A DNA stretch of 24,000 nucleotides from Pseudomonadota bacterium (GTDB lineage: Bacteria; Desulfobacterota; Syntrophorhabdia; Syntrophorhabdales; Syntrophorhabdaceae). Below are positions 4,406 to 24,000 of the stretch, one piece after another. The translations under genes and the position numbers were made by a program. The DNA lies in the NCBI GenBank assembly GCA_026388255.1, contig JAPLKC010000131.1:17373-41372 (forward strand), read 5' to 3'. The notes under the pieces are model-generated. The model was not told where the DNA came from. It saw only the letters and a program-made list of their open reading frames with translations, and searched no databases. Numbering within the stretch: the first letter of the stretch is position 1; every line of letters starts with the position of its first letter.

Positions 4406-4415
4406 GGAGGTTATT

Positions 4416-7157
<2,742 letters not shown>

Positions 7158-7162
7158 ACGAC

Positions 7163-7687
7163 ATGCATATGACAAAAAGAACGGTCATTGCCTGCTTCTT
7201 TATAATCTGTATTGTTGCCGTACTGGATATGCTCCCGGTTTCAGCACAGGAACTTAAAATCGGGATTTTCGACCTCCAAAAGATCATGAGGGAGTCAAAA
7301 ACCGTTGGCGGTTACCGCCAGGATTTTCTGAAAAGCATTGAAACAAAAAGAAAGCCTCTACAGGATAAAGAAGAATTTGCAAAGGCTATTGAAGACAAGA
7401 TCAAAAAGGATGGCAGCAGTCTTTTGCCGGGGGACAGGAAGGCCATTGAAGAAAAGCTTGTTGACGAAAGCAAGGAAATCAGAAGGATGAAAGAGGATTT
7501 TAACGCCGAGGCGATGAAGATGGACAGGGAACTGGCACAGAAGGCCTTTTTGGAAATAGATGTAATTATCAAAAAAATAGCCGAACAGGAGAATTATACT
7601 ATCATATTTGAAAAAACTGCTGCCGGAATAGTCCACTTTAAAAACACGGTTGATATCACAGGCAAGATACTTGAACAATTCAAGTAA
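7163..7687 (+). CDS. Skp/OmpH-family periplasmic chaperone
   Basis: The track ORF 6983..7687 overlaps the previous gene. A sensible start is the in-frame ATG at 7163 (or 7169), which gives MHMTKRTVIACFFIICIVAVLDMLPVSAQELKIGIFDLQKIM. That is a signal peptide followed by the charged coiled-coil-like body typical of OmpH/Skp. Confidence 0.7.
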   Translation: MHMTKRTVIACFFIICIVAVLDMLPVSAQELKIGIFDLQKIMRESKTVGGYRQDFLKSIETKRKPLQDKEEFAKAIEDKIKKDGSSLLPGDRKAIEEKLVDESKEIRRMKEDFNAEAMKMDRELAQKAFLEIDVIIKKIAEQENYTIIFEKTAAGIVHFKNTVDITGKILEQFK

Positions 7688-7727: not shown

Positions 7728-9686
7728 CTACTTCTCAGAAAACTTCACCACTTCTTTTTCTGCAGAACACTCTGCAATAGCGCATTCCTCTCCCTCTCCT
7801 AAAGATGATATCGCATAGATTGCAACAGGCTCGGCTTTGCCCTTTACCGCAACCCTGTCAAGCCCTTCGACTTTTAGTCTCCACATCTTCCCTTCGGTGA
7901 TTATCCCTCTTATTTTATCGAGGGTAGATTCTGTAATAATGACGTCCGAGTCGTATTTACGTGTAAGTCCCTCCACCCTTGCGCCCAGGTTCACATTGTC
8001 GCCAATAACCGTATAATCCATCTTTTTCCCTTCAGCACCGATATTGCCTACGATAACCTCACCGGTATTGATGCCGAAACCTGCATAAAGAGACTCTCTG
8101 CCTTCAGATTCCCATTTTGCATGAAGCTCACCCAACCTCCTCTTCATATGAAGCGTACATTTGACTGCAAGCTCTGCATGGTTTTCCTGGGGCAAGGGGG
8201 CGCCCCAGAAGGCGACAATCTCATCCCCCACAAACTTGTCAAGGGTGCCCTCCCATTGGAATATTATATCCGTCATCTCTCCAAGATATTCATTGAGAAT
8301 TTGCACAACCTGCTCCGGCGAATGTTTCTCTGAAAATGTTGTAAAACCCCGCACGTCTGAAAACATGACGGTAATTTCCCTTCTCTCGCCGCCAAGTTTT
8401 GCAAGGCTTGGATTCTTTATAAGTTCATTGACAACTCTTTCCGTCACATAACTCGAGAACATGCCCCGTATCCTTTTGGCATACCGCTCCTCTGTTGCAT
8501 ACCGGTAAGCCGTTATAGTAAAATATGTAATTACCAGGTTGCTCCCTGTAAAGCTTAAGTCAATCCATATATTTTTCTCGAAAAAGAAATAATTGGCAAT
8601 CAAATAAAGCGCTCCTATAAAAACAAAGGAGAGAAGGGCGCCGAATAACGCTTTTAGCCTTACAATCAAAATAGAGAAAATTATGCCGGAGATAAGAATA
8701 ATCAAAATATTTGTAAGATTTGTGATTCTAAAAATAAAATCTTTATGCAATATAGATGTTATAACATTCGCGTGCTTCTCCACACCGGCCATGATCCCTG
8801 TGGGTGTTACCCTCAAATCATATATCCCTACCGCAGTTGCCCCGATAAGAACGATCTTGTCTTTAATTTTAGATGGGGCTACCTTGTTCTGAAGAACATC
8901 AAGAGCAGATATTTGCGGCGTCGTCCCCTCCGGCCCATAGTAGCGTATGAGCGTCCTACCCCAGAAATCCGTAGGGATAAAGCTATCCCCCAGTTGAATC
9001 CCATCGGTTGCCTTCAGCGTCATTGCCTCCATTGGCAAGCCCATAAAAACCCTTGCTGCCTGGAGGCTTATGGATGGAAATATTTCCCCGTCGAATTCCA
9101 CGGCCATTATTTCCCACCTGAGGACCCCGTCCTTGTCCGGGATCATATTAATATGACCGAGTGTCTTTGCACCCGCTGAAATTTCCTTTAACGGCATAAG
9201 GACTTTATTGGCGCTTATAGGTGGAAATATCTTAAAATTACCGGAGTCGCGCACCATAGGGAAAGAACTGTCATACAGAATATTCTCGCTTATCTTGCTT
9301 TTTTCACCCTTAAAATCAAAAACAACAGGGAGGATAACGTTTCCGGCTTTTTTTATGGATGCTGCAAGAACATCATCGTCTTTCCAGGGTTCGCTGAAAA
9401 TAATATCCAGAGCAATGACCTTTGCTCCCATTTCATTTAAAGCATCTATCATAAGGGCTACTTTGCTCCTGTCCCAGGGCCATCTTCCTATTTTTTCAAG
9501 GCTTTTGTCGTCAATCCCCACAATTACGACCTCTTTCAACGGAGCTTTCATTCCATGAATATGATATCTTACATCGTAGAGAAGAAGTTCAAGGCGCTCA
9601 AGAGGAACAAATTTGATGACAACAAGTGTAGCAAATATAAGTGTAATAATGACCCCGATTATTGTTGGAAGGAGTGTTTTTCTCAT
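7728..9686 (-). CDS. CHASE2-sensor class III adenylate/guanylate cyclase
   Basis: 652-aa ORF with an N-terminal TM helix. The periplasmic CHASE2-like region reads VVIVGIDDKSLEKIGRWPWDRSKVALMIDALNEMGAKVIALDIIFSEP. TM helices follow around aa 330-400. The C-terminal class III cyclase motifs are REITVMFSDVRGFTTFSE...KFVGDEIVAFWGAP...GINTGEVIVGNIG...DYTVIGDNVNLGARVE. Confidence 0.9.
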   Translation of the reverse strand: MRKTLLPTIIGVIITLIFATLVVIKFVPLERLELLLYDVRYHIHGMKAPLKEVVIVGIDDKSLEKIGRWPWDRSKVALMIDALNEMGAKVIALDIIFSEPWKDDDVLAASIKKAGNVILPVVFDFKGEKSKISENILYDSSFPMVRDSGNFKIFPPISANKVLMPLKEISAGAKTLGHINMIPDKDGVLRWEIMAVEFDGEIFPSISLQAARVFMGLPMEAMTLKATDGIQLGDSFIPTDFWGRTLIRYYGPEGTTPQISALDVLQNKVAPSKIKDKIVLIGATAVGIYDLRVTPTGIMAGVEKHANVITSILHKDFIFRITNLTNILIILISGIIFSILIVRLKALFGALLSFVFIGALYLIANYFFFEKNIWIDLSFTGSNLVITYFTITAYRYATEERYAKRIRGMFSSYVTERVVNELIKNPSLAKLGGERREITVMFSDVRGFTTFSEKHSPEQVVQILNEYLGEMTDIIFQWEGTLDKFVGDEIVAFWGAPLPQENHAELAVKCTLHMKRRLGELHAKWESEGRESLYAGFGINTGEVIVGNIGAEGKKMDYTVIGDNVNLGARVEGLTRKYDSDVIITESTLDKIRGIITEGKMWRLKVEGLDRVAVKGKAEPVAIYAISSLGEGEECAIAECSAEKEVVKFSEK

Positions 9687-9826: not shown

Positions 9827-9936
9827 TGGACCTTATGGAGCTCGAAAATATTGGTTAATTAGTTGTTTTTACTTACTATTTAAGAAAATTAATTTCATGG
9901 GGTTTTAATAAAATACCCTATTTTTTAATGTTTTTT

Positions 9937-9969
9937 ATCACAGTTTTATTACAGTTTTATCACAGTGGG
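9937..9969 (+). repeat. Three tandem 11-nt direct repeats next to the tRNA fragment
   Basis: The units are atcacagtttt, attacagtttt and atcacagtggg, contiguous from 9937 to 9969. Confidence 0.8.
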
Positions 9970-10061: not shown

Positions 10062-10574
10062 TCAGAATTTATCTGAACAAAAGTACTTGACGAATGTACC
10101 GATTATGTACTCCCTGCCACCGGCGTTGTCTTTGCCGTGTATTGTGATCGTTTCCCCGGTCCTGTTTATAACAACTTGATATACATTTCCGTACTGGTCG
10201 GTCAACATAGTATCGTATCCTGTCACCTTTATCCGCCAAAGTTCCACCTGAGTAAAGCAAATGCTGGAGGTGATATAACAGTAGTATTTATCTTTAAGAT
10301 ATTCATAAAGTACCAGGGTCATGTCCTTTAGCTCAAGATATACGTCACGAGATGGATTATTCGGTGCTCTTTGCCAGGCACAGCCATTGAATTTGGCAAG
10401 AAAACTCTCTATTTCGTTTTTTTGATATGTTCCATCAGATACATTGCCGGATGATAGGGGCGGCGTTGCAGATTGAAGATTCTGAGAGCAAACGGATACT
10501 GGAAGGAAAACAAGACAAAGCAAGCACGCAAGCAGCGCAACGAAAAACAGGTATTGTCTTTGAATATCAAACAT
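10062..10574 (-). CDS. Exported hypothetical protein
   Basis: 170-aa ORF with a hydrophobic signal-like N-terminus (LFFVALLACLLCLVFLPVSVCSQ). I recognise no motif. Several Cys residues are present. Confidence 0.55.
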   Translation of the reverse strand: MFDIQRQYLFFVALLACLLCLVFLPVSVCSQNLQSATPPLSSGNVSDGTYQKNEIESFLAKFNGCAWQRAPNNPSRDVYLELKDMTLVLYEYLKDKYYCYITSSICFTQVELWRIKVTGYDTMLTDQYGNVYQVVINRTGETITIHGKDNAGGREYIIGTFVKYFCSDKF

Positions 10575-11442: not shown

Positions 11443-11476
11443 CTGCCATACACTTGGCAGTCAGGCATGGTATAAA
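11443..11476 (+). promoter_or_regulatory. Palindromic operator + extended -10 promoter of WYL regulator 1 (site 1)
   Basis: CTGCCA (11443-11448), tacact, TGGCAG (11455-11460), then 10 nt ending in TGg, then TATAAA (11471-11476). The RBS ggagg and the ATG at 11504 follow. Confidence 0.6.
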
Positions 11477-11503
11477 ATACACAAGAAACATGTGGAGGTA
11501 TAA

Positions 11504-12451
11504 ATGTCATTTAAATTTGATTCATTAATGAGGATTCTTAACATGCTTGACAGAAAAGAAAAGGTAACAGTACAGTCGCTTATGTATGATTTGAATATCA
11601 GTGAGAGGAGCACCTACCGCTATGTGACAACCCTGAAAGATGCCGATTTCCCCATCAACTTTGACAGGGAAAAGGGTACATATACCTTCGAAGAAGGGTA
11701 TAGCCTGAGCAAGCCGGACCTTACACTGGAAGAGATCCTTGCCTTCTCTCTGGCCAGGAAACTCCTCGGTAATTTTGGCCCCGGCATGGAAACTACCCTT
11801 GATCAGATAGAAAAAAAGATTTCCATAAAGAAATCCGGGGTATTAAAGAATGTTATTTTCTCTCATGAAGATTTTTCAGCCAAGGTTGGAGAGTACCTTT
11901 TTTCCATTCACCAGGCAATTCAGAATTTTCAGAAGATTGAACTTGTTTACAGGGCGCTCTATTCAGACGAAGTGACAAAACGTAAGGTAAACCCTTACTA
12001 TCTTTTTTCCCAGGATGATTTATGGCATTTCAGGGCATATTGTAATCTGAGAAAAGATTTTAGAACTTTTGCTCTTGATCGTATAAAATCAATGAGAATA
12101 CTCGATGAACACTTTGTCCCTGGAAGAATCCCGCAAGAAGATGAACTTGCAGGTGCTTTCGGAACATATATCGATGGTGAACCCGTAGAGGTAGTCATGA
12201 GATTTGATGAAGATATAAAACCCTATATTCTGCGGAAAAAATGGCATAAAAGCCAGCAGGATCACCCTCTTGATGACGGGAGAATTGAACTGACCTTTAT
12301 TGTTAACGGCATTGAAGGCATAAAGCAATGGGTATATAAATGGCTCCCATATGTTGAGGTTATAGAACCGAAAGAACTTAAGGCAACACTATTGGAAGAC
12401 TTGACTAGATCCATTGAGAAAAACAGGAAAACAATGAAAGGTAAAACGTGA
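11504..12451 (+). CDS. HTH-WYL-domain transcriptional regulator (BrxR/CapW/YafY-like), paralogue 1
   Basis: 315-aa ORF. The N-terminal wHTH reads RILNMLDRKEKVTVQSLMYDLNISERSTYRYVTTLKDADFPI. The central WYL-type region reads YRALYSDEVTKRKVNPYYLFSQDDLWHFRAYCNLRKDFRTFALDRI. The C-terminal WCX-like part reads KWHKSQQ...VNGIEGIKQWVYKWLPYVEVIEPKEL. Confidence 0.85.
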   Translation: MSFKFDSLMRILNMLDRKEKVTVQSLMYDLNISERSTYRYVTTLKDADFPINFDREKGTYTFEEGYSLSKPDLTLEEILAFSLARKLLGNFGPGMETTLDQIEKKISIKKSGVLKNVIFSHEDFSAKVGEYLFSIHQAIQNFQKIELVYRALYSDEVTKRKVNPYYLFSQDDLWHFRAYCNLRKDFRTFALDRIKSMRILDEHFVPGRIPQEDELAGAFGTYIDGEPVEVVMRFDEDIKPYILRKKWHKSQQDHPLDDGRIELTFIVNGIEGIKQWVYKWLPYVEVIEPKELKATLLEDLTRSIEKNRKTMKGKT

Positions 12452-12544
12452 AGGGTCAAAAAACAATATCGGATAGCTGTTTTGTAGATCGATGAATAGG
12501 AGCACAAATCAGCAATAAAGACTTTTGTAAAAAAAGGGAGTACC

Positions 12545-14026
12545 ATGGAATATAACAAGAAAGATGAAATATACCTAAACAAGTCGCTCTTTATCAGGGC
12601 TCTCCAGTGCCACAAATCACTCTATCTCAAGAAGCACCAACCTGATTTGGCAGAGACGCCTTCTGAGGACCAGCAGGCAAGAATGGAGAGCGGACAAGAA
12701 GTCGGCATCCTTGCTCAGGATTTATTCCCGGGAGGCATAGAGATTCCGTATGAGGGATTAAGTTATGATGAGCAGCTTGCAAGAACAGATGAAGCAGTCA
12801 GGACGGGCCATACGATCTATGAAGGCGCCTTCAGATATGACAATATTTTCATTAAAGTTGATATCCTTTACAAAGGTGCTGACGGCTGGGAACTCTATGA
12901 GGTAAAGGGATCAACGGAGGTCAAGGAATACCACACAAACGACATTTCCCTTCAGTACTATGTCCTTAAAAATGCCGGTATCCCCGTATCGAGGGCATGT
13001 CTTGTCCATATCAACAACCAGTATATACGTAACGGTGAAATAGAGGTTGGTAAACTCTTTATCTCAGAGGACCTTACCGGTATGGTTCAGGAGAAAGAAA
13101 GCTTAGTCAGGGAAGAGGTTGCAAAGATGCGGGAGATGCTGAATGGTGACGTGCCTCAAATTGATATTGGAAGTTACTGCGACGACCCGTACCCATGTGA
13201 TTTTAGCAGCCACTGCTGGAAACACATTCGGGAAGGGTCTGTCTTTGACCTGGCAGGCAGGGGCGTTGACCGTTACGACCTTTACTACAAGGGGGTCAAA
13301 AGACTCATCGACATCCCCACAGACATTCTCACGAACAGCCAGAGGATTCAAGTTGAGTGCGCAAGGGACAAAAGCAGCATAATTGACAAGGAACAGTTAA
13401 GGAAATTCCTTTCACGGCTCTGGTATCCGCTCTATTTTCTTGATTTCGAGACATATATGCCTGCCATCCCCCTTTATGACGGGATGTCACCCTACCAGCA
13501 GATGCCTTTTCAGTATTCTCTATTCGTGCAGATAAATGAAGGAGTGCCCCTTCAACACTATGAATACATTGCTCAACCCAACGTTGATCCGAGGAGAGAG
13601 CTTATCGAAAAACTCCTTTATGAGATTCCCCAGGGGTCATGCGGACTTGCCTACAACTCCTCTTTTGAGGTAAACAGACTGAATGAACTTGCTGTATGGC
13701 TTCCAGAATACAAGGATACAATTGCTGAAATTACAGAAAACATTATTGACCTGGCAATACCTTTCAGAAGCAAATATGTCTACTCATGGGAAATGTGTGG
13801 TTCTTACTCACAGAAGGCTGTACTGCCTGCTCTTGTACCTGAGCTGAGTTATAACGGTATGGAAGTTGCTGACGGCGGTATGGCTATGGATGCCTACTTC
13901 CAGATGTGTACCTCCAAAGATCAGGACGAAATTGAAAGAATCAGGAAAGCCCTCCTCGAATACTGTAAGCTCGATACTTTGGGAATGGTGAAGATTTTGG
14001 AGAAGCTGAAGGCACTTATCTTATAG
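12545..14026 (+). CDS. DUF2779-type protein: N-terminal Cas4-like PD-(D/E)xK nuclease with a Cys cluster + C-terminal FET-motif domain
   Basis: 493-aa ORF with RBS gggag. The N-terminus LNKSLFIRALQCHKSLYLKK is typical of the family. The nuclease motif is VDILYKGADGWELYEVKGS (D...ExK). A Cys cluster, C-x5-C-x5-C (YCDDPYPCDFSSHC), is joined by the N-terminal Cys. The hallmark FLDFETYMPAIPLYDGMSPYQQMPFQYSL is present. Later AYNSSFEVNRL and ADGGMAMDAY suggest a DEDD-like exonuclease arrangement. Confidence 0.75.
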   Translation: MEYNKKDEIYLNKSLFIRALQCHKSLYLKKHQPDLAETPSEDQQARMESGQEVGILAQDLFPGGIEIPYEGLSYDEQLARTDEAVRTGHTIYEGAFRYDNIFIKVDILYKGADGWELYEVKGSTEVKEYHTNDISLQYYVLKNAGIPVSRACLVHINNQYIRNGEIEVGKLFISEDLTGMVQEKESLVREEVAKMREMLNGDVPQIDIGSYCDDPYPCDFSSHCWKHIREGSVFDLAGRGVDRYDLYYKGVKRLIDIPTDILTNSQRIQVECARDKSSIIDKEQLRKFLSRLWYPLYFLDFETYMPAIPLYDGMSPYQQMPFQYSLFVQINEGVPLQHYEYIAQPNVDPRRELIEKLLYEIPQGSCGLAYNSSFEVNRLNELAVWLPEYKDTIAEITENIIDLAIPFRSKYVYSWEMCGSYSQKAVLPALVPELSYNGMEVADGGMAMDAYFQMCTSKDQDEIERIRKALLEYCKLDTLGMVKILEKLKALIL

Positions 14027-15147: not shown

Positions 15148-15181
15148 CTGCCAAACAGGTGGCAGAAGGGTCTGCTATACT
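15148..15181 (+). promoter_or_regulatory. Palindromic operator + extended -10 promoter (site 2) upstream of the 15203 operon
   Basis: CTGCCA (15148-15153), aacagg, TGGCAG (15160-15165), then 10 nt ending in TGc, then TATACT (15176-15181). The RBS aaggaga and the ATG at 15203 follow. Confidence 0.6.
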
Positions 15182-15202
15182 GACTTGTAAAGGAGAATCC
15201 TT

Positions 15203-15997
15203 ATGGACGGAGGAAGCTTGCAAAACGGTACATCTGGGCAGTTGCTGATGTGGGAAGCCATAGACTATTTTATTTCCGCCGGTAAAGTTGTTTGCCGGCT
15301 TTTCAAGGATGATTTAAGGGAATTGGTCTCTAAGTCAGATAACAGGTTTAAATCTATGCACCTCAGAGAACCGTTCACCGTTGATTTGGGTCAGAATAAA
15401 TTGTCTGCCGGTAATTATAAGAGAGAAGAAGAAGGATATGCCGACTGGCTTATATGGATTCTGATGCAGCTCAGCGGTGCACAAATATTGAGTATATTCG
15501 GGATAACAGACGAAACAACCCTGAAATCCTGCACTTCTTTGACGCCTGTTATTAAGAAGGAGGTAAGTGTTCGGCCATGTCCGGAAACACCGTATGTCAG
15601 GACCGATATCCTGATAATTTATACAGATATACTTTTAATACACGTTGCAGTGAAGGTAATCGACGCCAGAATAGCTCATGTTCAGGAGCAAGGTGTTTAT
15701 AGAAAATCGCTTGAAGGGAGAGGGTTTGAACATATTCCGAAGTGCCACCATATACTGCTTGTAATTAATTCATTCCATGAAGAATACGATGGATATAAAG
15801 TGCTGAGATGGGCTGATTTATGTCTTAACCTCAGACAAATAATTCTTACAGAAGGGAGTCTTGATAATCTACTCGTTAAATCAGCAATAGCAATATTTGT
15901 CGGTATAGTCGAACAAACTTTGTTAGGCCTTTCAGTCAGCGGTTTTTCCGGCAGCTCAAAATTGATAGATTATATGGAATTAATATTAAGGCGATAA
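15203..15997 (+). CDS. PDDEXK_4-like protein, apparently degenerate (ExK replaced by AVK)
   Basis: 264-aa ORF. EEEGYADWLIWILMQL resembles the N-terminal E..hs.wLa.LL motif of the neighbouring 16708 protein. The core is YVRTDILIIYTDILLIHVAVKVID, with Ala at the catalytic Glu position. Confidence 0.5.
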   Translation: MDGGSLQNGTSGQLLMWEAIDYFISAGKVVCRLFKDDLRELVSKSDNRFKSMHLREPFTVDLGQNKLSAGNYKREEEGYADWLIWILMQLSGAQILSIFGITDETTLKSCTSLTPVIKKEVSVRPCPETPYVRTDILIIYTDILLIHVAVKVIDARIAHVQEQGVYRKSLEGRGFEHIPKCHHILLVINSFHEEYDGYKVLRWADLCLNLRQIILTEGSLDNLLVKSAIAIFVGIVEQTLLGLSVSGFSGSSKLIDYMELILRR

Positions 15998-16001
15998 CAA
16001 T

Positions 16002-16637
16002 ATGGATAATCAGAAAAACCTGAATGTTTCTCTCGATAATTTATTGGAACAAGGAATGCAATCGTATCTGTTTGCGTTACTTACAGTACAACAGTTCAGG
16101 GTAGAGGTTCAAAAACGAACATTAAATGCCCTAACAGGAAAAATCAAAGAACTTGGCGATGCCATGGGCAGGGATATTGATGAAAGCTGGTTAAAACCCT
16201 ATATAAATCCTGATGGTCTGTCAGACCCAGGCTATGATGGAAGCAGAGCCGAGGTTTCGTTAAAGCTTTTTGTAGCTCCGGTGGACTGCTATTTTGGAAT
16301 GCGCTTCGAGCTTGATGGTGAGGGGAAAACAGAATCTTATGTCACGGTAAATATGTGGCCATGGACAAAGGAGCAGATGCATTTCTTACTTCAGAAAACC
16401 AAAGAAGTTACTGACGACTTTAATAACAATATGGGAAATGAAATAGAAATTCGTGAAATTCTCAACCCGGCAGAGCATGAGTTTTTTGAGAAAAAATTGA
16501 TTGCCCTGATAGATAAATGGATAGCTGTTTGGAAAAAAGTGGGCGGCATTGATACAATGAATAATGGTTTTCCATCTGAGTTTGCAACTGCCTACCCCTT
16601 GAAAGCAAGTCCAGAAGCTGCGCCAGGTCATCCCTAA
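16002..16637 (+). CDS. Hypothetical protein
   Basis: 211-aa ORF that starts 4 nt after the upstream stop. I recognise no motif. Confidence 0.55.
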   Translation: MDNQKNLNVSLDNLLEQGMQSYLFALLTVQQFRVEVQKRTLNALTGKIKELGDAMGRDIDESWLKPYINPDGLSDPGYDGSRAEVSLKLFVAPVDCYFGMRFELDGEGKTESYVTVNMWPWTKEQMHFLLQKTKEVTDDFNNNMGNEIEIREILNPAEHEFFEKKLIALIDKWIAVWKKVGGIDTMNNGFPSEFATAYPLKASPEAAPGHP

Positions 16638-16707
16638 GGTACACTTTCTTTGCCTTGTTTTATTTGTTCCCTTGAAGTAAAATGTTAACAATTTTAGAGG
16701 ATAGATT

Positions 16708-17871
16708 ATGAATATAGATGAATTTCTTAGAGGCCTACACGGAAGACTCGAAAGCTTTCAGCATGCACGGGAATTGTATGCACCACGGCTGGCCCCTGAT
16801 TTTAATAGCTTTAATGTTATCTCTCCGGATGAAATGCGATTGTCAAAAATCCTGGCAACATTGCTTGATCCTGCCGGTGAACATGCACAAGGTCCAGCGT
16901 TTCTAAAGGCGTTCCTGCACTGGGCCCAACTTGAAGGCTACTTGGCTGAATCCAATCCGGTAAAGGTTCAAACTGAAGTGGTTACTGACCGCATCGACAA
17001 TCCAATGCGCCGAATGGATATTATCATAGACTTCGGGGATGCGGCCATTGTCATCGAAAATAAGCCATGGACCGGCGATCAAAGTGAACAGGTAAGCGAT
17101 TATGTCAAACAGGTGAAGAGTAGCCATCCTAACAATTTTTGCCTGTTATATTTATCTGGTACAGGCGAACCACCAACTGAAGCGAGTGTTTTGCCAACCA
17201 ATAGGGCGGAATTAGAGAGAAAAGAACAGCTCAAAGTTAAACCATACTCTACCCTATTGGATTGGCTAACTGGCTGCAAGGCTGTCTGCCAGTCTGAAAG
17301 GGTAAGACATTTTCTTGATGATTTTTCGGATTATATCCGTCAGCAATTTATGGGGGTACACGACATGACTGAATTTAATGAAATCTCCAACGCCGTAAGA
17401 AAAACGAAGGAAACGCTTCGGGCAGCCCTTAAGGTAGCTGCCAATATTGACGGCATCAAGATAGATTTACTTGATCAGCTTAAAGCCCAACTTACCGACA
17501 GAGTTCAAAAAAGGTCCTGGATTCTTGACTGGCATATTGAGTATTGGAATAAATATTCATGTTTCGGGATTTCCTTTGCTAAGGAGCAACAACAATATGA
17601 AGTATGGTTTGAATTTGATGGCAAACAATGTCAGGGATTGCATTATGGTATATTAGATAAAAATCTCTTAAACCAAGAAGAAATCCGGAATCGCCTCAAT
17701 AGCAATATTACAACTGGCAAAAATGGCGACGGGTGGCTTTGGAGAATAGATGGTCCTGAACCTTACCTTTATTGGCTCAATAGCGAAGAACCATGGATGG
17801 ACATTATTTGCAACGATAAACTTGCGGATATGGTAATCGAGTATGCCGAGAAAATTTATCAAGCGTTGTAG
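16708..17871 (+). CDS. PD-(D/E)xK nuclease family protein (PDDEXK_4-like)
   Basis: 387-aa ORF with RBS agagga. FNVISPDEMRLSKILATLLDPAGEHAQGPAFLKAFL matches the family's N-terminal motif. The catalytic core is RRMDIIIDFGDAAIVIENKPWTGDQSEQVSDY, giving D, ExK and QxxxY. Confidence 0.7.
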   Translation: MNIDEFLRGLHGRLESFQHARELYAPRLAPDFNSFNVISPDEMRLSKILATLLDPAGEHAQGPAFLKAFLHWAQLEGYLAESNPVKVQTEVVTDRIDNPMRRMDIIIDFGDAAIVIENKPWTGDQSEQVSDYVKQVKSSHPNNFCLLYLSGTGEPPTEASVLPTNRAELERKEQLKVKPYSTLLDWLTGCKAVCQSERVRHFLDDFSDYIRQQFMGVHDMTEFNEISNAVRKTKETLRAALKVAANIDGIKIDLLDQLKAQLTDRVQKRSWILDWHIEYWNKYSCFGISFAKEQQQYEVWFEFDGKQCQGLHYGILDKNLLNQEEIRNRLNSNITTGKNGDGWLWRIDGPEPYLYWLNSEEPWMDIICNDKLADMVIEYAEKIYQAL

Positions 17872-18494: not shown

Positions 18495-18528
18495 CTGCCA
18501 GACTGTTGGCAAAATGATTCGTTATACT
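18495..18528 (+). promoter_or_regulatory. Palindromic operator + -10 promoter (site 3) upstream of the WG-repeat gene
   Basis: CTGCCA (18495-18500), gactgt, TGGCAA (18507-18512), then 10 nt, then TATACT (18523-18528). The spacing is identical to sites 1 and 2. Confidence 0.55.
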
Positions 18529-18540
18529 GTCATAGGGAGG

Positions 18541-19578
18541 ATGACTTTGGACAGACGAACATTTCTTAAGTTTCTTGCCGGCACGGGCGCCATGTTTTCA
18601 CTTTGGCTCACACCCTCATTGAATGGCAAATCCCGCCATACAAACATCAGATATGGTTTTATCAACAGGACAGGTAAAATAGTCATTGCACCTCGCTTTG
18701 AATTAGCCTTAGGATTCTTGGATGGCCGCGCTGCTGTTCAGATCGATGGGAAATGGGGATATATAGATGAAAATGGTAAACGTGTCGTTCCGGCACAATT
18801 CGATGAAGCCATGGATTTTAATGAAGGTCTTGCATGTGTAGAGTTGGATGGAAAATGCGGTTATATCGATAAAAGTGGTAAATTCGCTGTCCCGCCACAA
18901 TATGAACTTTCATTCTCCGCTTTTTCAGATGGCCTTGCATGTGTGAGGGTAAACGGCAAATATGGGTATATCAATAAAACAGGTAAGTTTGTAATTGATC
19001 CTGTATTTGAGGAAGCATCAGGATTCTCCGAAGGATTGGCAAAGGTAAAAACTTGCAACAAATATTCATTTACTGACAAGACAGGGAAACAGGCTTTCCC
19101 GTATTCCTTTGATGGAGCCCTTCCGTTCTCGGATGGGCTGGCAAGTGTCGTGGTTGACGGACAATGGGGATATATCGACAAAACCGGCAAAATGGTGATA
19201 CGGCATCAGTATCATGGGCACGAGTATTTCAAGGAAGGCATGGTACCGATAATGAGTGAAAAAAAATGGGGGTATATCGATAAAACAGGAGCGGTTGTCA
19301 TTGAACCTCGCTACACTTTAGTCGGAGCTTTTTCCAAAGGTCTCTGCCCCGTTGAATTCGATGGCAAATGGGGATATATTGATGCAAAAGGAAACATGAT
19401 TATCCCGCCAATCTTTGCACATGCATCAGAGTTCAGTGAGGGGATAGCAGATGCACGAAATACTGAAAACGGTAGAGATGGATATATCAACCAAAAAGGC
19501 AAGTATGTTATTAAACCTCAGTTTTACGAAGCATGTTCATTCTCTGAAGGTCTTGCGGTAATAGGGGTAGAGATATAA
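18541..19578 (+). CDS. Exported WG-repeat (KWG-type) protein with a twin-arginine signal
   Basis: Repeated GKWGYID..GK.VI.P.F....F.EGLA units occur about ten times. The N-terminus MTLDRRTFLKFLAGTGAMF is Tat-like. The track start at 18514 lies inside the operator/-10 region and lacks an RBS. The ATG at 18541 abuts gggagg, and the in-frame TTG at 18547 has better spacing, so the start lies at 18541-18547. Confidence 0.75.
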   Translation: MTLDRRTFLKFLAGTGAMFSLWLTPSLNGKSRHTNIRYGFINRTGKIVIAPRFELALGFLDGRAAVQIDGKWGYIDENGKRVVPAQFDEAMDFNEGLACVELDGKCGYIDKSGKFAVPPQYELSFSAFSDGLACVRVNGKYGYINKTGKFVIDPVFEEASGFSEGLAKVKTCNKYSFTDKTGKQAFPYSFDGALPFSDGLASVVVDGQWGYIDKTGKMVIRHQYHGHEYFKEGMVPIMSEKKWGYIDKTGAVVIEPRYTLVGAFSKGLCPVEFDGKWGYIDAKGNMIIPPIFAHASEFSEGIADARNTENGRDGYINQKGKYVIKPQFYEACSFSEGLAVIGVEI

Positions 19579-19865: not shown

Positions 19866-19899
19866 ATGACATAATGCTGTCAGTTATGTGTGGTATTGT
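19866..19899 (+). promoter_or_regulatory. Palindromic operator + extended -10 promoter of WYL regulator 2 (site 4, variant half-site)
   Basis: ATGACA (19866-19871), taatgc, TGTCAG (19878-19883), then 10 nt ending in TGg, then TATTGT (19894-19899). The RBS aaggag and the ATG at 19926 follow. Confidence 0.55.
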
Positions 19900-19925: not shown

Positions 19926-20852
19926 ATGTCATATAAGTTTGATTCACTTGCTATTATCCTCAACAAGCTTGACAGTAAAGAAACCGTAACGGTTTTATCT
20001 CTTACGGATGAGCTTGAGGTAAGCGGGAGAACCGTTCACAGATATATAAGTACGTTGCAGGTAGCTGGATTCCCTATTGAATACGATAAAATAAAGAATA
20101 GCTACGTTTTTACCGAAGGCTATACTCTTAAAAAACCGACCCTTTCGTTAGAGGAGACTCTTGCCTTTGCTCTTGCGAAGAAATTACTCATAAACTTCGG
20201 ACCGGGTATGGAGAAAAGCCTTTCCGATATTGAGGATAAGCTTTCACCAAAAAAAGGGGACTTCAAACATATCATCCTATCTGCAGATGCTTTGCCTGTA
20301 GCATCTGAGCAGTATCTTGGTCTTATACACCAGGCCATAACGAATTATCAGAGGATCAAGCTCGTGTATAAAGCGCTGTATGCTGATAATCCAACGGAAA
20401 GTAGTATAGACCCATACTATTTGTTTTTCAGAGAAGGCATCTGGTATCTCAGGGGAGATTATCATCTGGAAAAAGCTGCAAGAACCTTCGCCCTTGACAG
20501 GATAGTTTCTTTAACGCTTCTTGATGAGCACTTTATCCCGAAGCCTACCTCCCCTGATGATGAGCTGTCCGCTGCCTTCGGGGCATTTATTGACGGTGAG
20601 CCTGTAGAAGTCGTACTGAGGTTTGACAAACTGAGCAAGCCACTTGTCCTGAGAAAGAAATGGCATAAAAGCCAGCAGATTAAAGAGCTTGAGGACGGAG
20701 GTATAGAGGCAAGATTCACTGTAAACGGCATAAAAGGCATACAACCATGGATCTACAGGTGGATACCTTTTGTAGAGGTTATTGCCCCTGAAGAGTTAAG
20801 AGATATGTTTATCAAGGATCTTGACGAAGCCATTAAAAGACATAAGAAATGA
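19926..20852 (+). CDS. HTH-WYL-domain transcriptional regulator (BrxR/CapW/YafY-like), paralogue 2
   Basis: 308-aa ORF that aligns by eye along its full length with the 11504 protein. Shared segments include MSxKFDSL..ILN.LD.KE.VTV.SL, FGPGME, RTFALDRI, LDEHF.P, DEL..AFG..IDGEPVEVV.RFD, LRKKWHKSQQ and VNGI.GI..W.Y.W.P.VEVI.P.EL. Confidence 0.85.
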   Translation: MSYKFDSLAIILNKLDSKETVTVLSLTDELEVSGRTVHRYISTLQVAGFPIEYDKIKNSYVFTEGYTLKKPTLSLEETLAFALAKKLLINFGPGMEKSLSDIEDKLSPKKGDFKHIILSADALPVASEQYLGLIHQAITNYQRIKLVYKALYADNPTESSIDPYYLFFREGIWYLRGDYHLEKAARTFALDRIVSLTLLDEHFIPKPTSPDDELSAAFGAFIDGEPVEVVLRFDKLSKPLVLRKKWHKSQQIKELEDGGIEARFTVNGIKGIQPWIYRWIPFVEVIAPEELRDMFIKDLDEAIKRHKK

Positions 20853-20983
20853 AACTGCATAAAATAGTTGTTGTAGAAAAGAATAAACTATTAACAAAAA
20901 TATCAGCTTGAATAAAGCTACTATATATGATTATTAGAAATCATATCTGCCTTATTAAAAACAGATTAAAAGGGAGGGGTTAA

Positions 20984-21082
20984 ATGGGACAAGAAGAATA
21001 TTTAGTAAAGTTTTACAAATTGGATTACCTCATCTTGGCAGATTTAAATATAAATTTAACAACAATTTGTTTTCAGAGATAG
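20984..21082 (+). CDS. Possible 32-aa small ORF with a strong Shine-Dalgarno
   Basis: gggagggg (20972-20979) lies 4 nt before the ATG at 20984. The translation is MGQEEYLVKFYKLDYLILADLNINLTTICFQR. No other support. Confidence 0.2.
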   Translation: MGQEEYLVKFYKLDYLILADLNINLTTICFQR

Positions 21083-21118
21083 AAAAAACTAACCTATCAA
21101 AAAAAGGAGTGAAAACAT

Positions 21119-21289
21119 ATGCCAAATGGAGGACATATTTCTTGTGTGCATTGCACGTACAATCGGCAGACATCAGGAACGTGTGATATCTTGAGGATTG
21201 AAACAAGCCCTTTTATCTTATGCAGAGCTTTCAGAAAACTCAAGCAATCTCATACCGAAGCACGAAAAAAAGTGGCCTATGCTAAATGA
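21119..21289 (+). CDS. Small Cys-rich (zinc-ribbon-like) protein, possibly the 5' part of a frameshifted gene
   Basis: The RBS aaggagtg lies 7 nt before the ATG at 21119. The translation MPNGGHISCVHCTYNRQTSGTCDILRIETSPFILCRAF... has four Cys including CxxC. It is too short for the ORF track. The frame ends at 21289, after an A7 run at 21265-21271. Confidence 0.45.
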   Translation: MPNGGHISCVHCTYNRQTSGTCDILRIETSPFILCRAFRKLKQSHTEARKKVAYAK

Positions 21290-21395
21290 TCTGAAGCCTG
21301 GGGTTGTATATGGGATCGATAATTCTTCTTTTTTAGCCGGAGATTCAAGACCGATATATAAACTACAAATTTTCAAAAAAGTGGAGAGAACATGA
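21198..21395 (+). CDS. Overlapping ORF in the +1 frame, probably the 3' part of the same gene
   Basis: Track ORF of 65 aa. Its TTG start has no usable RBS. Its 3' end overlaps the next gene's start in an ATGA junction (21392-21395). This supports translation of this frame downstream of the A7 run (…KKWPMLNDLKPGVVYGIDNSSFLAGDSRPIYKLQIFKK). Confidence 0.35.
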   Translation: MKQALLSYAELSENSSNLIPKHEKKWPMLNDLKPGVVYGIDNSSFLAGDSRPIYKLQIFKKVERT

Positions 21396-22351
21396 ACGAA
21401 GTAAGAAAAGAAGTCGAAAAGATATTATCAGAAAACCAACAGGATTGGGAAGAAAGATTTTATGAGTATTATGAAAAGATAATTAATAACTCGGAAAACA
21501 TAGAGAAAAATAGACAAAAATTTCATATGAGAGGATTTTTACGAGCGTATATGAATTTTGGACAGGCCATGAAAAAAACACCAAAATTTAGTATTCGTTA
21601 CGGAGGACAAATTGCTGGTATAATGAAATTTATGAAAAACAAAAAGGAACCTATCCTTGTAATCACCCCAAAACAAGCTAAAGATAACAATAAGTGGTTT
21701 AAGTTCGATCTTCCAAATGGAGAATACGCTTGGAGATCATCTGCTGAAGCTCAAAAATTTAGAGAGAGATTTGAAAAAAATCCACCGCCACCAGTTAGAC
21801 AAGACGAACACCGCTTAGAAACATTTATTCTTGATGAAATGTTCAACCCTACGATTAAAAAGTTTTGTGGAACTTTTAAAAATATTCAGCCAGTTTGTAT
21901 TGCAAACAATGTTCCTTTCCAGATGCTCATACCAATACGTGCACGCGGAGGAAAGATCGGTTACAAGGATGGTCACATAGATATTGTTGCTCGATATGGT
22001 AGAGGAACAACATCCTTGTTGGCAATTGAAATAAAAAGACCTGGTGGCCAATATCAAGGTGCTGCAAAGCAGGCATACATTTATGCGGTAACCATGTCCT
22101 ATATGTTTAATAAAACAGGAGATAACTTCAAGAAGCACTTATATACGTTATGTGGATATAAAAACGTATATTCAAATCTAAAAATTCATGCTGTGGTTGC
22201 AATTCCCGATACTTATAAATCTAAATTTTCTCAAGAACAAGAATTACTCAATGCTTCTAATATTAACGTTGATATACCTATACATTATATTACTTATCAA
22301 CTTGCAGACAATCAGAGAATTAAAGTTATAGGAACGAGCCTTGAAACTTAA
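21392..22351 (+). CDS. RecB/Cas4-like PD-(D/E)xK nuclease-fold protein (no Cys cluster)
   Basis: 319-aa ORF with RBS ggagag. The core is EHRLETFILDEM ... GHIDIVARYGRGTTSLLAIEIKRPGGQYQGAAKQAYIYA, giving E, D, ExK and QxxxY. I do not recognise the N-terminal ~140 aa. Confidence 0.65.
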   Translation: MNEVRKEVEKILSENQQDWEERFYEYYEKIINNSENIEKNRQKFHMRGFLRAYMNFGQAMKKTPKFSIRYGGQIAGIMKFMKNKKEPILVITPKQAKDNNKWFKFDLPNGEYAWRSSAEAQKFRERFEKNPPPPVRQDEHRLETFILDEMFNPTIKKFCGTFKNIQPVCIANNVPFQMLIPIRARGGKIGYKDGHIDIVARYGRGTTSLLAIEIKRPGGQYQGAAKQAYIYAVTMSYMFNKTGDNFKKHLYTLCGYKNVYSNLKIHAVVAIPDTYKSKFSQEQELLNASNINVDIPIHYITYQLADNQRIKVIGTSLET

Positions 22352-23660
22352 AATTCACCGTGGTACTCACGAAATAGGCGGTTCCTGTGTTGAGGTAAAG
22401 GACTCCGACACGCGTATCGTCATAGACATTGGAATGCCCCTTGTTACAAGAGAGAAAGAAAAATTCGATATGAAGGCATATAAGGAATTATCCGGCCCTG
22501 AACTCGTTGAAAAGCAGATACTGCCTGATATAAAAGGTCTGTATGAATGGGATACCGGCAACAAACCTATTGACGGGCTACTCATTTCACATTCCCATGC
22601 AGACCATTACGGCTTCATGGATTATATACGAGATGATATACGGTGTTTCTTGAGCGAAGGAACGCAGCGTATTATTGAACTTAACAAGAGTTTTTTTAAC
22701 AGGGGTAAACAGATAAAGAACCCCATCATTCTTCAGAGTGGAAAACCTACTCATATCAAGAGTCTAACGGTTACGCCTTACCTGATGGACCATTCTGCTT
22801 TTGATGCTCAGGCATTTCTCATCGAGAGCAAAGACCGTAAGATCATCTATTCGGGTGATTTCAGGGAACACGGGAGAAAAGAAAAAGCCTTTGAATGGTT
22901 TCTGGAAAATGTCCCAAGGGGAGTTGATGCGCTTCTGCTGGAAGGAACGATGGTAGGACAGGTTGACCGTAATTCGAAAACAGAAGAGGAGCTTGAAGTA
23001 GAATTGACCAATCTTATCAAAAAAAGCAATAAAATGACCATTGTATTCCAGTCGTCACAGAACATCGACAGGATTGTGACATGCTTCAAGGCTGCGTGGA
23101 AAGCAAAACGCCTGTTTGTTATCGACCTATATACTGCGCATGTCCTTCATACCCTAAAGAACACAACGAGATCCCCTCGAATCCCATATCCATCTCAGAA
23201 AGACTTCCCTACATTGAAAGTCTTTTTCCCAAAAAGGCTGTGTGACCTCCTTGCAAGAACTAACAAAAAAGAATTGATGTATGCGTTCAAAGACTTCAAG
23301 ATAGACCGGGGACAGATATCGGAAAATCCACAAAAGGTGGTTATGCTGGTGAGGCCTTCCATGCTTGGAGACTTGAAGCAGTTGCAGGGAATTCATGGGG
23401 CATCGGCAATATACTCCCAGTGGCAGGGATATCTTGATGAAACACCGATGAAAAGGATGATGGATTTTCTCAAAAGCCAGGACGTAGACATTATCCATCT
23501 TCATACGAGTGGTCATGCAGGTATGAGAACACTCAAGAAGGTCATTGATGTGGTAAAACCAAAAACGATAATACCCATTCACACTTTCTATCCTGAACTT
23601 TACGAGAAATTCGGCGCCAATGTGCTCAAGTTGGAAGACGGACAGGAGATTTCCGTATAG
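22341..23660 (+). CDS. beta-CASP-family metallo-beta-lactamase-fold nuclease
   Basis: 439-aa ORF whose TTG start overlaps the upstream gene by 11 nt. The MBL motifs are RIVIDIGMP, LLISHSHADHYGF, LMDHSAFD and IIYSGDFR. The beta-CASP-like motifs are ALLLEGTM and IHLHTSGHA, and the protein ends with IIPIHT. Confidence 0.8.
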   Translation: MKLKIHRGTHEIGGSCVEVKDSDTRIVIDIGMPLVTREKEKFDMKAYKELSGPELVEKQILPDIKGLYEWDTGNKPIDGLLISHSHADHYGFMDYIRDDIRCFLSEGTQRIIELNKSFFNRGKQIKNPIILQSGKPTHIKSLTVTPYLMDHSAFDAQAFLIESKDRKIIYSGDFREHGRKEKAFEWFLENVPRGVDALLLEGTMVGQVDRNSKTEEELEVELTNLIKKSNKMTIVFQSSQNIDRIVTCFKAAWKAKRLFVIDLYTAHVLHTLKNTTRSPRIPYPSQKDFPTLKVFFPKRLCDLLARTNKKELMYAFKDFKIDRGQISENPQKVVMLVRPSMLGDLKQLQGIHGASAIYSQWQGYLDETPMKRMMDFLKSQDVDIIHLHTSGHAGMRTLKKVIDVVKPKTIIPIHTFYPELYEKFGANVLKLEDGQEISV

Positions 23661-23666
23661 GTTTTC

Positions 23667-24000
23667 ATGGAAACACTTGGGCAGCCAGAAAGGAGATGGG
23701 ATCATGAATATACAGAGGTCTGGGAAAGATTGCTTCAAACCCTAAAATCAGATAAATGGGATACAGATATATATGATGAAGATTGTTCGGCTCATGAAGA
23801 AATATATGCATACAAAGTGAATGGTCCGCTTGGCGTATTTAACCATATTGAGATATTCTTGTGCGAACTTGACAACAACTCCAACAACGTCGAAATCAGG
23901 TTCATGTTTTTTGCGGATCCACGGTTAGCAGGTCAGAAAAAAAGGATTCTCGGGAAAAAGGTAAAAGAGAATGACTTTTTTACATTTAAAGACTTTTGTA
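23667..24000 (+). CDS. Hypothetical protein, partial (continues past window end)
   Basis: An open frame runs from the ATG at 23667, 6 nt after the upstream stop, to the window edge. It is therefore not in the ORF track. The translation is METLGQPERRWDHEYTEVWERLLQTLKSDKWDTDIYDEDCSAHEEIYAYKVNGPLGVFNHIEIFLCELDNN... Confidence 0.5.
   Translation, partial: METLGQPERRWDHEYTEVWERLLQTLKSDKWDTDIYDEDCSAHEEIYAYKVNGPLGVFNHIEIFLCELDNNSNNVEIRFMFFADPRLAGQKKRILGKKVKENDFFTFKDFC

Follow-up and report, generated by a model that had tools for sequence, protein, structure and literature searches.

Single-stranded DNA (ssDNA) activates the WYL-domain transcription factors DriD and PafBC. Two other WYL regulators, BrxR and CapW, are repressors and control BREX and CBASS, respectively. 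PafBC acts via the RecA-NDp motif to activate a LexA-independent DNA-damage regulon (PMC6789036, PMC8223512). The mycobacterial consensus of this motif reads tTGTCRgtg-8nt-TAnnnT (quoted in PMC5656591). A WYL regulator with a similar promoter heads the locus described here. It is located on a stretch of 24,000 nucleotides (nt) from assembly GCA_026388255.1 (contig JAPLKC010000131.1, positions 17,373-41,372, forward strand), called the window in the following. From position 19,926 onward the window carries module B, in which the regulator WYL-2 precedes genes for two predicted nucleases, a 319-amino-acid (aa) protein of the PD-(D/E)xK type and a 439-aa beta-CASP protein of the metallo-beta-lactamase (MBL) fold. 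The enzyme folds and the regulator class are known. New appear to be the 319-aa PD-(D/E)xK family, the systematic pairing of PD-(D/E)xK-like and beta-CASP proteins, partly with an AAA+ protein, and a palindromic RecA-NDp-like promoter outside Actinobacteria. Module B and its promoter comprise the following features, of which several had been described in an earlier note made from the letters of this DNA.

19866-19883, + strand: WYL box ATGACAtaatgcTGTCAG, followed after 10 nt by the -10 element TATTGT (19894-19899), 27 nt before the WYL-2 ATG
19926-20852, + strand: WYL-2, 308-aa HTH_11-WYL-WCX transcription factor (Pfam matches, PDB relatives, orthologue identities)
20853-21118, + strand: AT-rich spacer of 266 nt with a lone half-site TGGCAG (21036-21041)
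21119-21289, + strand: N-terminal part of a small Cys/His-rich protein, 56 aa, with H6, C9, C12, C22 and C35
21279-21395, + strand: C-terminal part of the small protein in the +1 frame, 38 aa (MLNDLKPGVVYGIDNS...), whose stop forms an ATGA overlap with the 319-aa gene
21392-22351, + strand: 319-aa protein, C-terminal half RecB-like PD-(D/E)xK, with E139, D197, E213xK215 and Q227xxxY231
22341-23660, + strand: 439-aa beta-CASP protein, TTG start, MBL fold, His at motif C, RMMBL match
23667-24000 in the window, + strand: last operon gene, 178 aa on contig L001, where it ends at window-equivalent position 24203

The nuclease pair

The 319-aa protein had been recognized as a RecB-type core of E, D, ExK and QxxxY behind an N-terminal half without assignment, and this pattern turned out to be invariant or nearly so in the family. 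In an alignment of 65 members, E139, D197, E213, K215, Y231, G72 and W114 are invariant. Q227 is conserved in at least 90% of the sequences and places a QxxxY motif after the ExK strand. The acidic helix-1 residue, the aspartate and the ExK of a PD-(D/E)xK core are represented by E139, D197, E213 and K215. The N-terminal half of about 135 aa is likewise conserved (R69, G72, Q73, N99, W114, R124), its fold being without assignment. The protein yielded no match in Pfam, NCBIfam, PADLOC or PHROG and no sequence match in the PDB, and tblastn against plasmids and phages gave none. A word-index search retrieved five relatives, an exhaustive profile search 588 clusters at E<=1e-3. At 50% identity the family comprises about 590 clusters, mostly of about 320 aa. 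An AlphaFold2 model was obtained with a pLDDT of 95 and a pTM of 0.92. Foldseek with this model found nothing at E<1e-3 in the PDB or BFVD, and the weak top matches were PD-(D/E)xK nucleases: SfsA, ACE1 (Cas4 family), AdnAB and BsmI. An identity as Cas4 was rejected, as the invariant or nearly invariant columns contain no conserved cysteines and PF01930 does not match. Judged by these motifs, the 319-aa protein is the founder of an unannotated family of predicted RecB-like PD-(D/E)xK proteins.

The full beta-CASP motif set reported for the 439-aa protein is conserved in 33 sequences, in which H84xH86xD88H89, H151, D173, E201, H388/H392 and H414 are invariant or nearly so. Besides the MBL motifs, the protein therefore carries beta-CASP motif A with an acidic residue and motifs B and C each with a histidine. 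In Pfam, Lactamase_B_2 and RMMBL both exceed their cut-offs (RMMBL 24.6 versus 21.6 bits). The closest solved relative is 2AZ4 (E. faecalis EF2904, uncharacterised; 4e-21), followed by RNase J. Clustered at 90% identity, the family numbers over 6,500 clusters, with 2AZ4 as its only PDB representative. Membership in RNase J was rejected: TIGR00649 reached 89.7 bits against a cut-off of 400, NF047419 61.6 against 820, and the protein ends right after the MBL core without the C-terminal dimerisation domain of RNase J. Cas14 of type VII CRISPR was also excluded (NF045584, 14.8 bits versus a cut-off of 800; no cas genes, no CRISPR array). Rfam gave no matches and CRISPR arrays were not found, and a CRISPR or non-coding RNA explanation was rejected.

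Two of the gene junctions noted earlier are real as described, an 11-nt overlap of the 319-aa and beta-CASP genes (22341-22351) and a 6-nt gap (23661-23666) before the last gene. The 319-aa family was followed through six independently retrieved contexts, and a beta-CASP gene is adjacent in five of them: the window and the loci L010, L011, L016 (order inverted) and L017. The sixth is a 2.9-kb contig, on which the family member lies beside a Gp49/HTH toxin-antitoxin pair and no beta-CASP gene is adjacent. Adjacency was also found in L012, L014, L071, L075, L076, L085 and L089. Natural fusions of beta-CASP with a 319-like domain occur in P0131 (753 aa) and L087 (742 aa), while P0157 fuses a DEDD RNase_T exonuclease to a 319-like domain. 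Gene overlap, conserved adjacency and fusions together suggest that the two nucleases probably form a complex. The probable complex proposed earlier is supported for the pair. WYL-2 is not translationally coupled to the other genes: 266 nt separate it from the small open reading frame (ORF).

With the beta-CASP protein as query, at least 350 loci were confirmed among genomes sampled once per species, and the partners in the best 80 were analyzed with local hidden Markov models and clustering. These 80 span Desulfobacterota, Bacteroidota, Omnitrophota, Chloroflexota, Bacillota, Spirochaetota, Planctomycetota and others. In nearly every one, some partner of 250-350 aa is directly adjacent to beta-CASP. 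The 319-aa family fills this place in about 12 of the 80; other families are c1 (26 loci), c3 (9), c4 (4) and c5 (3). Each has a D...ExK...Q..Y-like core and an N-terminal hS-h-R/Y-x-G motif, and none matches Pfam. Links between the families in hhalign range from weak to strong (c1-c5 96.8%, c1-c4 69%, 319-aa family to c4 34%). In PADLOC they give no match, or only weak matches of PDC-S11 or CARF_PDDEXK to the ExK core. Motifs and weak profile matches suggest that the c-families are PD-(D/E)xK proteins as well. The general unit would therefore combine a beta-CASP protein, which is conserved, with a PD-(D/E)xK-like protein, which varies. In L055 and L068, two c3-type partner copies flank or precede one beta-CASP gene, which hints at interchangeable specificity subunits.

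Beta-CASP homologues with 31-35% identity are located on 10 plasmids. The copy on a Rhizobium plasmid lies beside N6-methylases, a GIY-YIG nuclease and TcmP/DUF5131. Among 50,697 phage genomes none had a beta-CASP homologue, and 2.9 million viral contigs contained only 8. The pair is accessory and mobile. It is not the conserved housekeeping operon of core genomes that the earlier note had named as the finding that would speak against its proposal: distribution is patchy, neighbours vary and plasmids carry copies.

The WYL regulator and its promoter box

WYL-2 was correctly called at 19926. Its HTH_11, WYL and WCX domains each score above the Pfam cut-off, giving a winged helix-turn-helix-WYL-WCX architecture. 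The nearest solved structures are DriD (7tzv, 8tp8) and PafBC (6sj9), with E about 1e-14; these two are the sole PDB relatives at E<=1e-10, and no BrxR or CapW structure was among the matches at E<=0.01. The WYL proteins heading homologous operons share 69% (L012), 64% (L010) and 49% (L014) identity with WYL-2. A WYL regulator heads about half of the informative contexts of this 319-aa/beta-CASP subfamily.

Scans for sigma-70 promoters and terminators and a search for short inverted repeats in intergenic regions were uninformative. A k-mer screen upstream of WYL genes revealed the box CTG[AC]CA-N6-TG[GT]CAG, followed by 10 nt and TAnnnT. Box plus -10 element occur at four window sites within one mismatch, versus 0.11 expected. 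Only the sequence at 19866-19899 fits TGTCRG-N10-TAnnnT exactly within the window, and its architecture is repeated in L012 and L014 in front of the WYL orthologues. It is predicted to be the WYL-2-dependent promoter of the operon. The promoter-proximal half-box and its spacing (TGTCRG, 10 nt, TAnnnT) reproduce the RecA-NDp consensus. The operator takes the place of the -35 element, as in PafBC-type target promoters.

The three remaining boxes of the window belong to the following units.

11443-14026, + strand: WYL-1 unit with box CTGCCAtacactTGGCAG (11443-11460) and TATAAA, WYL-1 (11504-12451) and a DUF2779 gene (12545-14026)
15148-17871, + strand: box CTGCCAaacaggTGGCAG (15148-15165) and TATACT, then a unit starting at 15203 with a 264-aa ORF, a 211-aa ORF and PDDEXK_4 (16708-17871)
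18495-19578, + strand: box CTGCCAgactgtTGGCAA (18495-18512) and TATACT, ribosome-binding site AGGGAGG, ATG at 18541, WG_beta_rep protein with Tat signal

A fifth box is present on L001 (4402-4419), about 55 nt before the start of an AAA+ gene. Together with this extension, about 27 kb of the genome were covered in this organism. Nine more boxes occur in L012 and L014, and the spacing is identical throughout. In L012 they precede, each with a -10 element, the WYL operon, the AAA+ gene, a 118-aa gene and an ARPP-1 gene. In L014 they precede a DnaJ-WYL-DnaE-319-like operon, a 63-aa/beta-CASP unit, a TPR gene and a SLOG/DprA-like gene. Across 1.07 Mb of fetched loci, 19 strand-hits were counted versus about 1.3 in shuffles. 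All 19 are confined to the window with L001, to L012 and to L014, whose WYL proteins are 49-69% identical to WYL-2. Nearly all boxes lie about 20-60 nt before a start codon; the exception, L014 1876, is ~190 nt away from the next called gene. The boxed genes encode nucleases, AAA+, DnaE-like, DnaJ-like, TPR, SLOG-like and WG-repeat proteins.

WYL-1 and WYL-2 are paralogues with 55% identity, and both modules share the box fused to a -10 element. The second WYL module, next to which a beta-CASP gene had seemed unusual in the earlier note, is thus part of the same arrangement. By their boxes, the WYL-1 and WYL-2 modules, the two further units and the AAA+ gene are assigned to one predicted regulon family and island. 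The proximal half-site reads TGGCA(G/A) at the three WYL-1-side sites versus TGTCAG at the WYL-2 and AAA+ sites, which suggests two sub-regulons, one per WYL paralogue.

Some boxed genes deserve separate mention. The DUF2779 protein under WYL-1 combines a Cas4-like nuclease with an RNase H-like exonuclease; in L085 DUF2779 is found in the same operon as beta-CASP. PDDEXK_4, the last gene of the boxed three-gene unit 15203-17871, matches the PADLOC candidate PDC-S26 (2.8e-44), and a homologue is located in L012 (11580-12995) beside a PIF1-like helicase. The WG_beta_rep gene had been called at 18514-19578 and encodes a Tat-like signal. The position of its box and the ribosome-binding site AGGGAGG imply that the true start is the ATG at 18541, not 18514. 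WG_beta_rep also flanks the pair in L015, L020 and L021, which is odd for a presumably exported protein. L014 (2499-11148) is part of a Schekmanbacteria metagenome-assembled genome (MAG) and carries five boxed promoters; its DnaE is short (793 aa) and devoid of the HhH and OB domains. The 118-aa boxed gene of L012 (1923-2279) encodes the pattern VDTRE...GDY...ERK, by eye a fragment of an ERCC4/XPF-type nuclease, and gave no Pfam match.

Operon structure and neighbouring genes

The 266-nt spacer behind WYL-2 contains no box within two mismatches, and no terminator was predicted on its + strand. The simplest expectation is therefore that transcription from the WYL-2 promoter continues into the nuclease genes. 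The corresponding genes of L012 form a single tight operon that begins with WYL. L011 and L012 have a TPR gene that the window lacks. The spacer was considered as its remnant, an origin that was rejected as no trace of the gene was found there; L010 also has no TPR gene.

The Cys-rich ORF noted earlier at 21119 is present, with 56 aa, as a frameshifted piece of a longer gene. In L010, L011 and L012 this gene is a single uninterrupted ORF of 83-92 aa (MPNGGHICC..C..TEARK(K/Q)WPMLNDLKPGVVY...). The DNA alignment shows an A7 run at 21265-21271 of the window versus A6 in L012, a +1 frameshift that splits the gene. The ATGA overlap at 21392 exists as described, formed by the +1-frame ORF 21279-21395 and not by the ORF that starts at 21119 and ends at 21289. 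All nine Logan contigs of the locus are identical to the window. All six that cover the A7 site (L002, L003, L006-L009) originate from different sequencing runs and show the frameshift with no mismatch, which indicates a real allele. A classical A_AAA_AAG -1 programmed frameshift was rejected, since a shift of +1 (or -2) would be needed. Transcriptional slippage on A7 is possible.

An extension of the contig beyond 24000, recommended earlier to find the operon end, was accomplished with L001, which shares 1,724 bp with the window at 100% identity and extends past its end. The ORF seen to start after the 6-nt gap and to run off the window does begin at 23667, and it terminates at the 24203-equivalent position. 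Compared with L012, the last gene contains a 1-nt insertion (L001 1860-1930, window-equivalent about 24136-24206) that truncates it to 178 aa. This gene and the short ORF behind it correspond to one intact 237-aa protein of L012, the Cys-rich C-terminus being out of frame. After the short ORF on L001 follows a convergent gene for a 723-aa double-AAA+ protein that resembles IetA. An AAA ATPase recurs as a companion. Its gene is a neighbour of the pair in L012 and in the window lineage, and both L001 and L012 have a box before it. L068 shows a fusion with beta-CASP, while in L049 and L090 the ATPase gene immediately precedes beta-CASP.

Comparison with defence systems was based on one library, PADLOC-DB v2.0 (2023). 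None of the four genes behind WYL-2 (small ORF, both nucleases, last gene) gave a match in it, in agreement with the earlier statement that the architecture of the two nucleases is not a nameable defence system. No paper describing the two-gene module was found in the literature. Among 150 sampled neighbour proteins, 170 Pfam families were counted and no synteny was conserved. They include TPR, Ank, SAM and N6/N4 methyltransferases, WYL, ADP-ribosylglycohydrolase, PDDEXK_4 and AAA_15. Per 88 loci, WYL occurs 9-11 times, DUF2779 7, DnaE-type polymerase 4, ADP-ribosylglycohydrolase 4, WG_beta_rep 4 and terminase 3 times. Neighbours matching PADLOC are WYL, mad2/mad3, PDC-S26, PDC-M72A, AriA/PtuA-like, MTase_II and capP, as raw matches. 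A DnaE-type polymerase is encoded inside the operon in L014, and in or next to the operon in L014, L068 and L074. L012 harbors RecQ and a PIF1-like helicase. NurA/HerA genes are near the pair in L016.

The remainder of the window contains genes of other kinds. At 2015-2779 a second, unrelated MBL-fold protein is encoded (254 aa), with similarity to class-II cyclic AMP phosphodiesterases. An outer-membrane cluster at 2828-7687 comprises a TPR+SlipAM/beta-barrel protein, a 913-aa FecR-domain protein and an OmpH-like chaperone. The 913-aa ORF contains a 24-nt tandem repeat (x3.2, 5121-5197) and a (CCG)x17.7 tract (5274-5326). A CHASE2-adenylate/guanylate cyclase is located at 7728-9686 on the minus strand. 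Between the cyclase gene and an ORF at 10062-10574, the 11-nt unit TTTTATCACAG is repeated x3.1 (9933-9966).

Function and comparison with known systems

The preferred reading, held with a confidence that comes near to an even chance and stops short of it, is an accessory module induced by DNA damage or ssDNA that serves nucleic-acid processing, repair or damage tolerance. It is derived from the type of regulator and promoter and from the links to DnaE, DUF2779, RecQ, PIF1 and ADP-ribosylglycohydrolase. A nucleic-acid stress signal, most likely ssDNA from damage or from stalled or foreign replication, would bind to the WYL domain of a WYL-2 homodimer. WYL-2 would then bind to CTGMCA-N6-TGKCAG in the -35 position, 10 nt before TAnnnT; the sites are observed, and the binding is a prediction. 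Activation of its own promoter may lead to read-through into the genes for the small Zn-type protein, both nucleases and the 178/237-aa protein, while the convergent Cdc48-like double-AAA+ gene would be driven from its own box. The 319-aa PD-(D/E)xK and the RNase J/SNM1-like beta-CASP protein may form a two-nuclease complex. The variable PD-(D/E)xK subunit could recognize a DNA structure and nick or cut it, leaving 5'-phosphate ends, from which the conserved beta-CASP subunit would degrade 5' to 3'. A possible task of the AAA+ partner is the removal of bound protein. The overall role would be damage-induced DNA processing or resection by a mobile cassette, not constitutive housekeeping.

Several observations weigh against a damage role. 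Most beta-CASP pairs have no WYL neighbour, and the box is limited to three loci of one WYL subfamily. Patchy distribution, a hypervariable partner and plasmid copies beside methylase and GIY-YIG genes resemble a defence island; a SLOG-domain gene and the PDC-S26 gene belong to the boxed regulons, and toxin-antitoxin and OLD/AriA-like genes are among the neighbours. An inducible defence against phages or plasmids is the main rival, conceivable but less likely than the damage role. WYL-2 would sense ssDNA of an infection or a nucleotide ligand, and a two-nuclease effector with the AAA+ protein would destroy the nucleic acid of the invader, or that of the host in abortive infection, the PD-(D/E)xK subunit recognizing the target in the manner of a restriction endonuclease. 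This would agree with a sporadic occurrence across many phyla lacking conserved synteny, with partners from at least five sequence-unrelated families beside a conserved beta-CASP protein, and with the neighbours that match PADLOC models. The methylases and GIY-YIG nuclease beside the Rhizobium plasmid copy, the family member next to a Gp49/HTH pair, the IetA-like AAA+ protein, NurA/HerA in L016 and the WYL control of BREX and CBASS point in the same direction. However, neither nuclease nor the tested partner families match a PADLOC system, the matches of the neighbours lack a background rate, and no methyltransferase or other self-protection gene accompanies the pair consistently. Promoter and regulator resemble those of PafBC and DriD and not the known defence repressors, and DnaE polymerases are encoded in the same operons. 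The balance is shifted from the defence system considered in the earlier note toward a damage role by the RecA-NDp-like box, by DriD and PafBC as nearest solved relatives of WYL-2 and by the DnaE and DUF2779 neighbours; an inducible defence stays the less likely main rival.

A histidine at motif C is typical of RNA-acting beta-CASP enzymes, and with the RMMBL match and the similarity to RNase J it gives the 439-aa protein an "RNA-type" appearance that also weighs against DNA processing. An RNase J-like beta-CASP protein together with an endonuclease for RNA or RNA-DNA hybrids could serve stress-induced RNA decay or quality control, a role considered improbable. Its basis is the RMMBL score, the RNase J family as best named relatives and the invariant H414 at motif C. 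However, 89.7 bits fall far short of the 400 required for RNase J, the nearest structure (2AZ4) is itself uncharacterised, and the substrate preference of beta-CASP enzymes is not readable from sequence alone. The QxxxY RecB-type partner, the DnaE, DUF2779, RecQ and PIF1 neighbours and the ssDNA-type regulator point to DNA. The two frameshifted operon genes raise a different objection, as the window copy may be partly decayed. A remnant without present function, kept by chance after horizontal acquisition, is very improbable. The two genes that are frameshifted in comparison with the nearest intact relative (small ORF, last gene), the missing TPR gene of L011/L012 and the 266-nt spacer without a clear promoter would fit such a fate. 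Against it, WYL-2 and the two nuclease genes have undisrupted ORFs that retain every catalytic and conserved residue, box and -10 element are intact, and the sequence is identical in at least nine independent sequencing runs, which indicates an allele that is stable in the population. The TPR gene is also absent from L010.

Beyond the window, it is a bold and somewhat doubtful proposal that the pair, frequently with the Cdc48-like AAA+ protein, represents a previously unrecognised pathway in at least several hundred species of more than 15 phyla. It would be either a bacterial counterpart of eukaryotic SNM1/Artemis with a p97-type protein or a new class of inducible immune nuclease, wired in one lineage to a PafBC-style "sigma-adaptation" promoter. 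If the former is true, the processing of blocked DNA ends, cross-links and DNA-protein adducts would be concerned. If the wiring is PafBC-style, the regulatory logic of RecA-NDp exists well outside Actinobacteria, and if the promoter works as in mycobacteria, LexA-independent WYL damage responses extend far beyond the actinobacterial and Caulobacter examples. Independently of this, the analysis provides a concrete regulatory logic (operator, -10 element, regulator and likely signal) for an operon of unknown function, and two "separate" WYL modules of the island become one predicted regulon family. It also adds a putative PD-(D/E)xK family, which has been modelled with confidence although none of its relatives has a solved structure, and pairs a very large beta-CASP family with apparently interchangeable partners, many of them PD-(D/E)xK-like. 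The module is a good candidate for biochemical work, whether it acts in repair or in defence.

Compared with known nucleases, the 319-aa protein shares the motif order E...D...ExK...QxxxY with RecB, AddAB and Cas4. It differs from these enzymes by the absence of Fe-S cysteines and by the N-terminal domain of about 135 aa. The beta-CASP protein is similar to 2AZ4 in its size of about 430 aa and the absence of extra domains. MBL motifs 1-4 and beta-CASP motifs A, B and C are common to RNase J, CPSF73 and SNM1-Artemis, in contrast to which it has an almost obligatory PD-(D/E)xK-like partner. To our knowledge, no beta-CASP enzyme characterised so far has been reported with a partner of this kind. 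Cas14 of type VII CRISPR is likewise a beta-CASP effector. The imuA-imuB-dnaE2 cassette offers a parallel as an accessory, horizontally spread and damage-regulated module on chromosomes and plasmids, and DnaE is present in or next to the operons of some relatives. The operon here contains no ImuA or ImuB homologues, is associated with WYL instead of LexA, and has a nuclease instead of a polymerase core.

Among regulators, BrxR with BREX and CapW with CBASS are comparable as WYL transcription factors beside nucleic-acid-targeting effectors. Both are repressors, from which WYL-2 differs by its activator-type relatives and its promoter. PafBC of Actinobacteria and DriD of Caulobacter, LexA-independent activators of the DNA-damage response, share the HTH-WYL-WCX architecture with WYL-2. 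PafBC is a fused PafB-PafC heterodimer and its RecA-NDp site is non-palindromic, whereas WYL-2 is a single 308-aa chain with a full palindrome as operator, implying a homodimer like DriD. The host of PafBC is actinobacterial, that of WYL-2 a Desulfobacterota-like "Proteobacteria" MAG. The WYL-2 boxes seen within the ~27 kb covered cluster in one island. The targets of PafBC and DriD and the genes behind the WYL-2 boxes are alike in encoding nucleic-acid enzymes.

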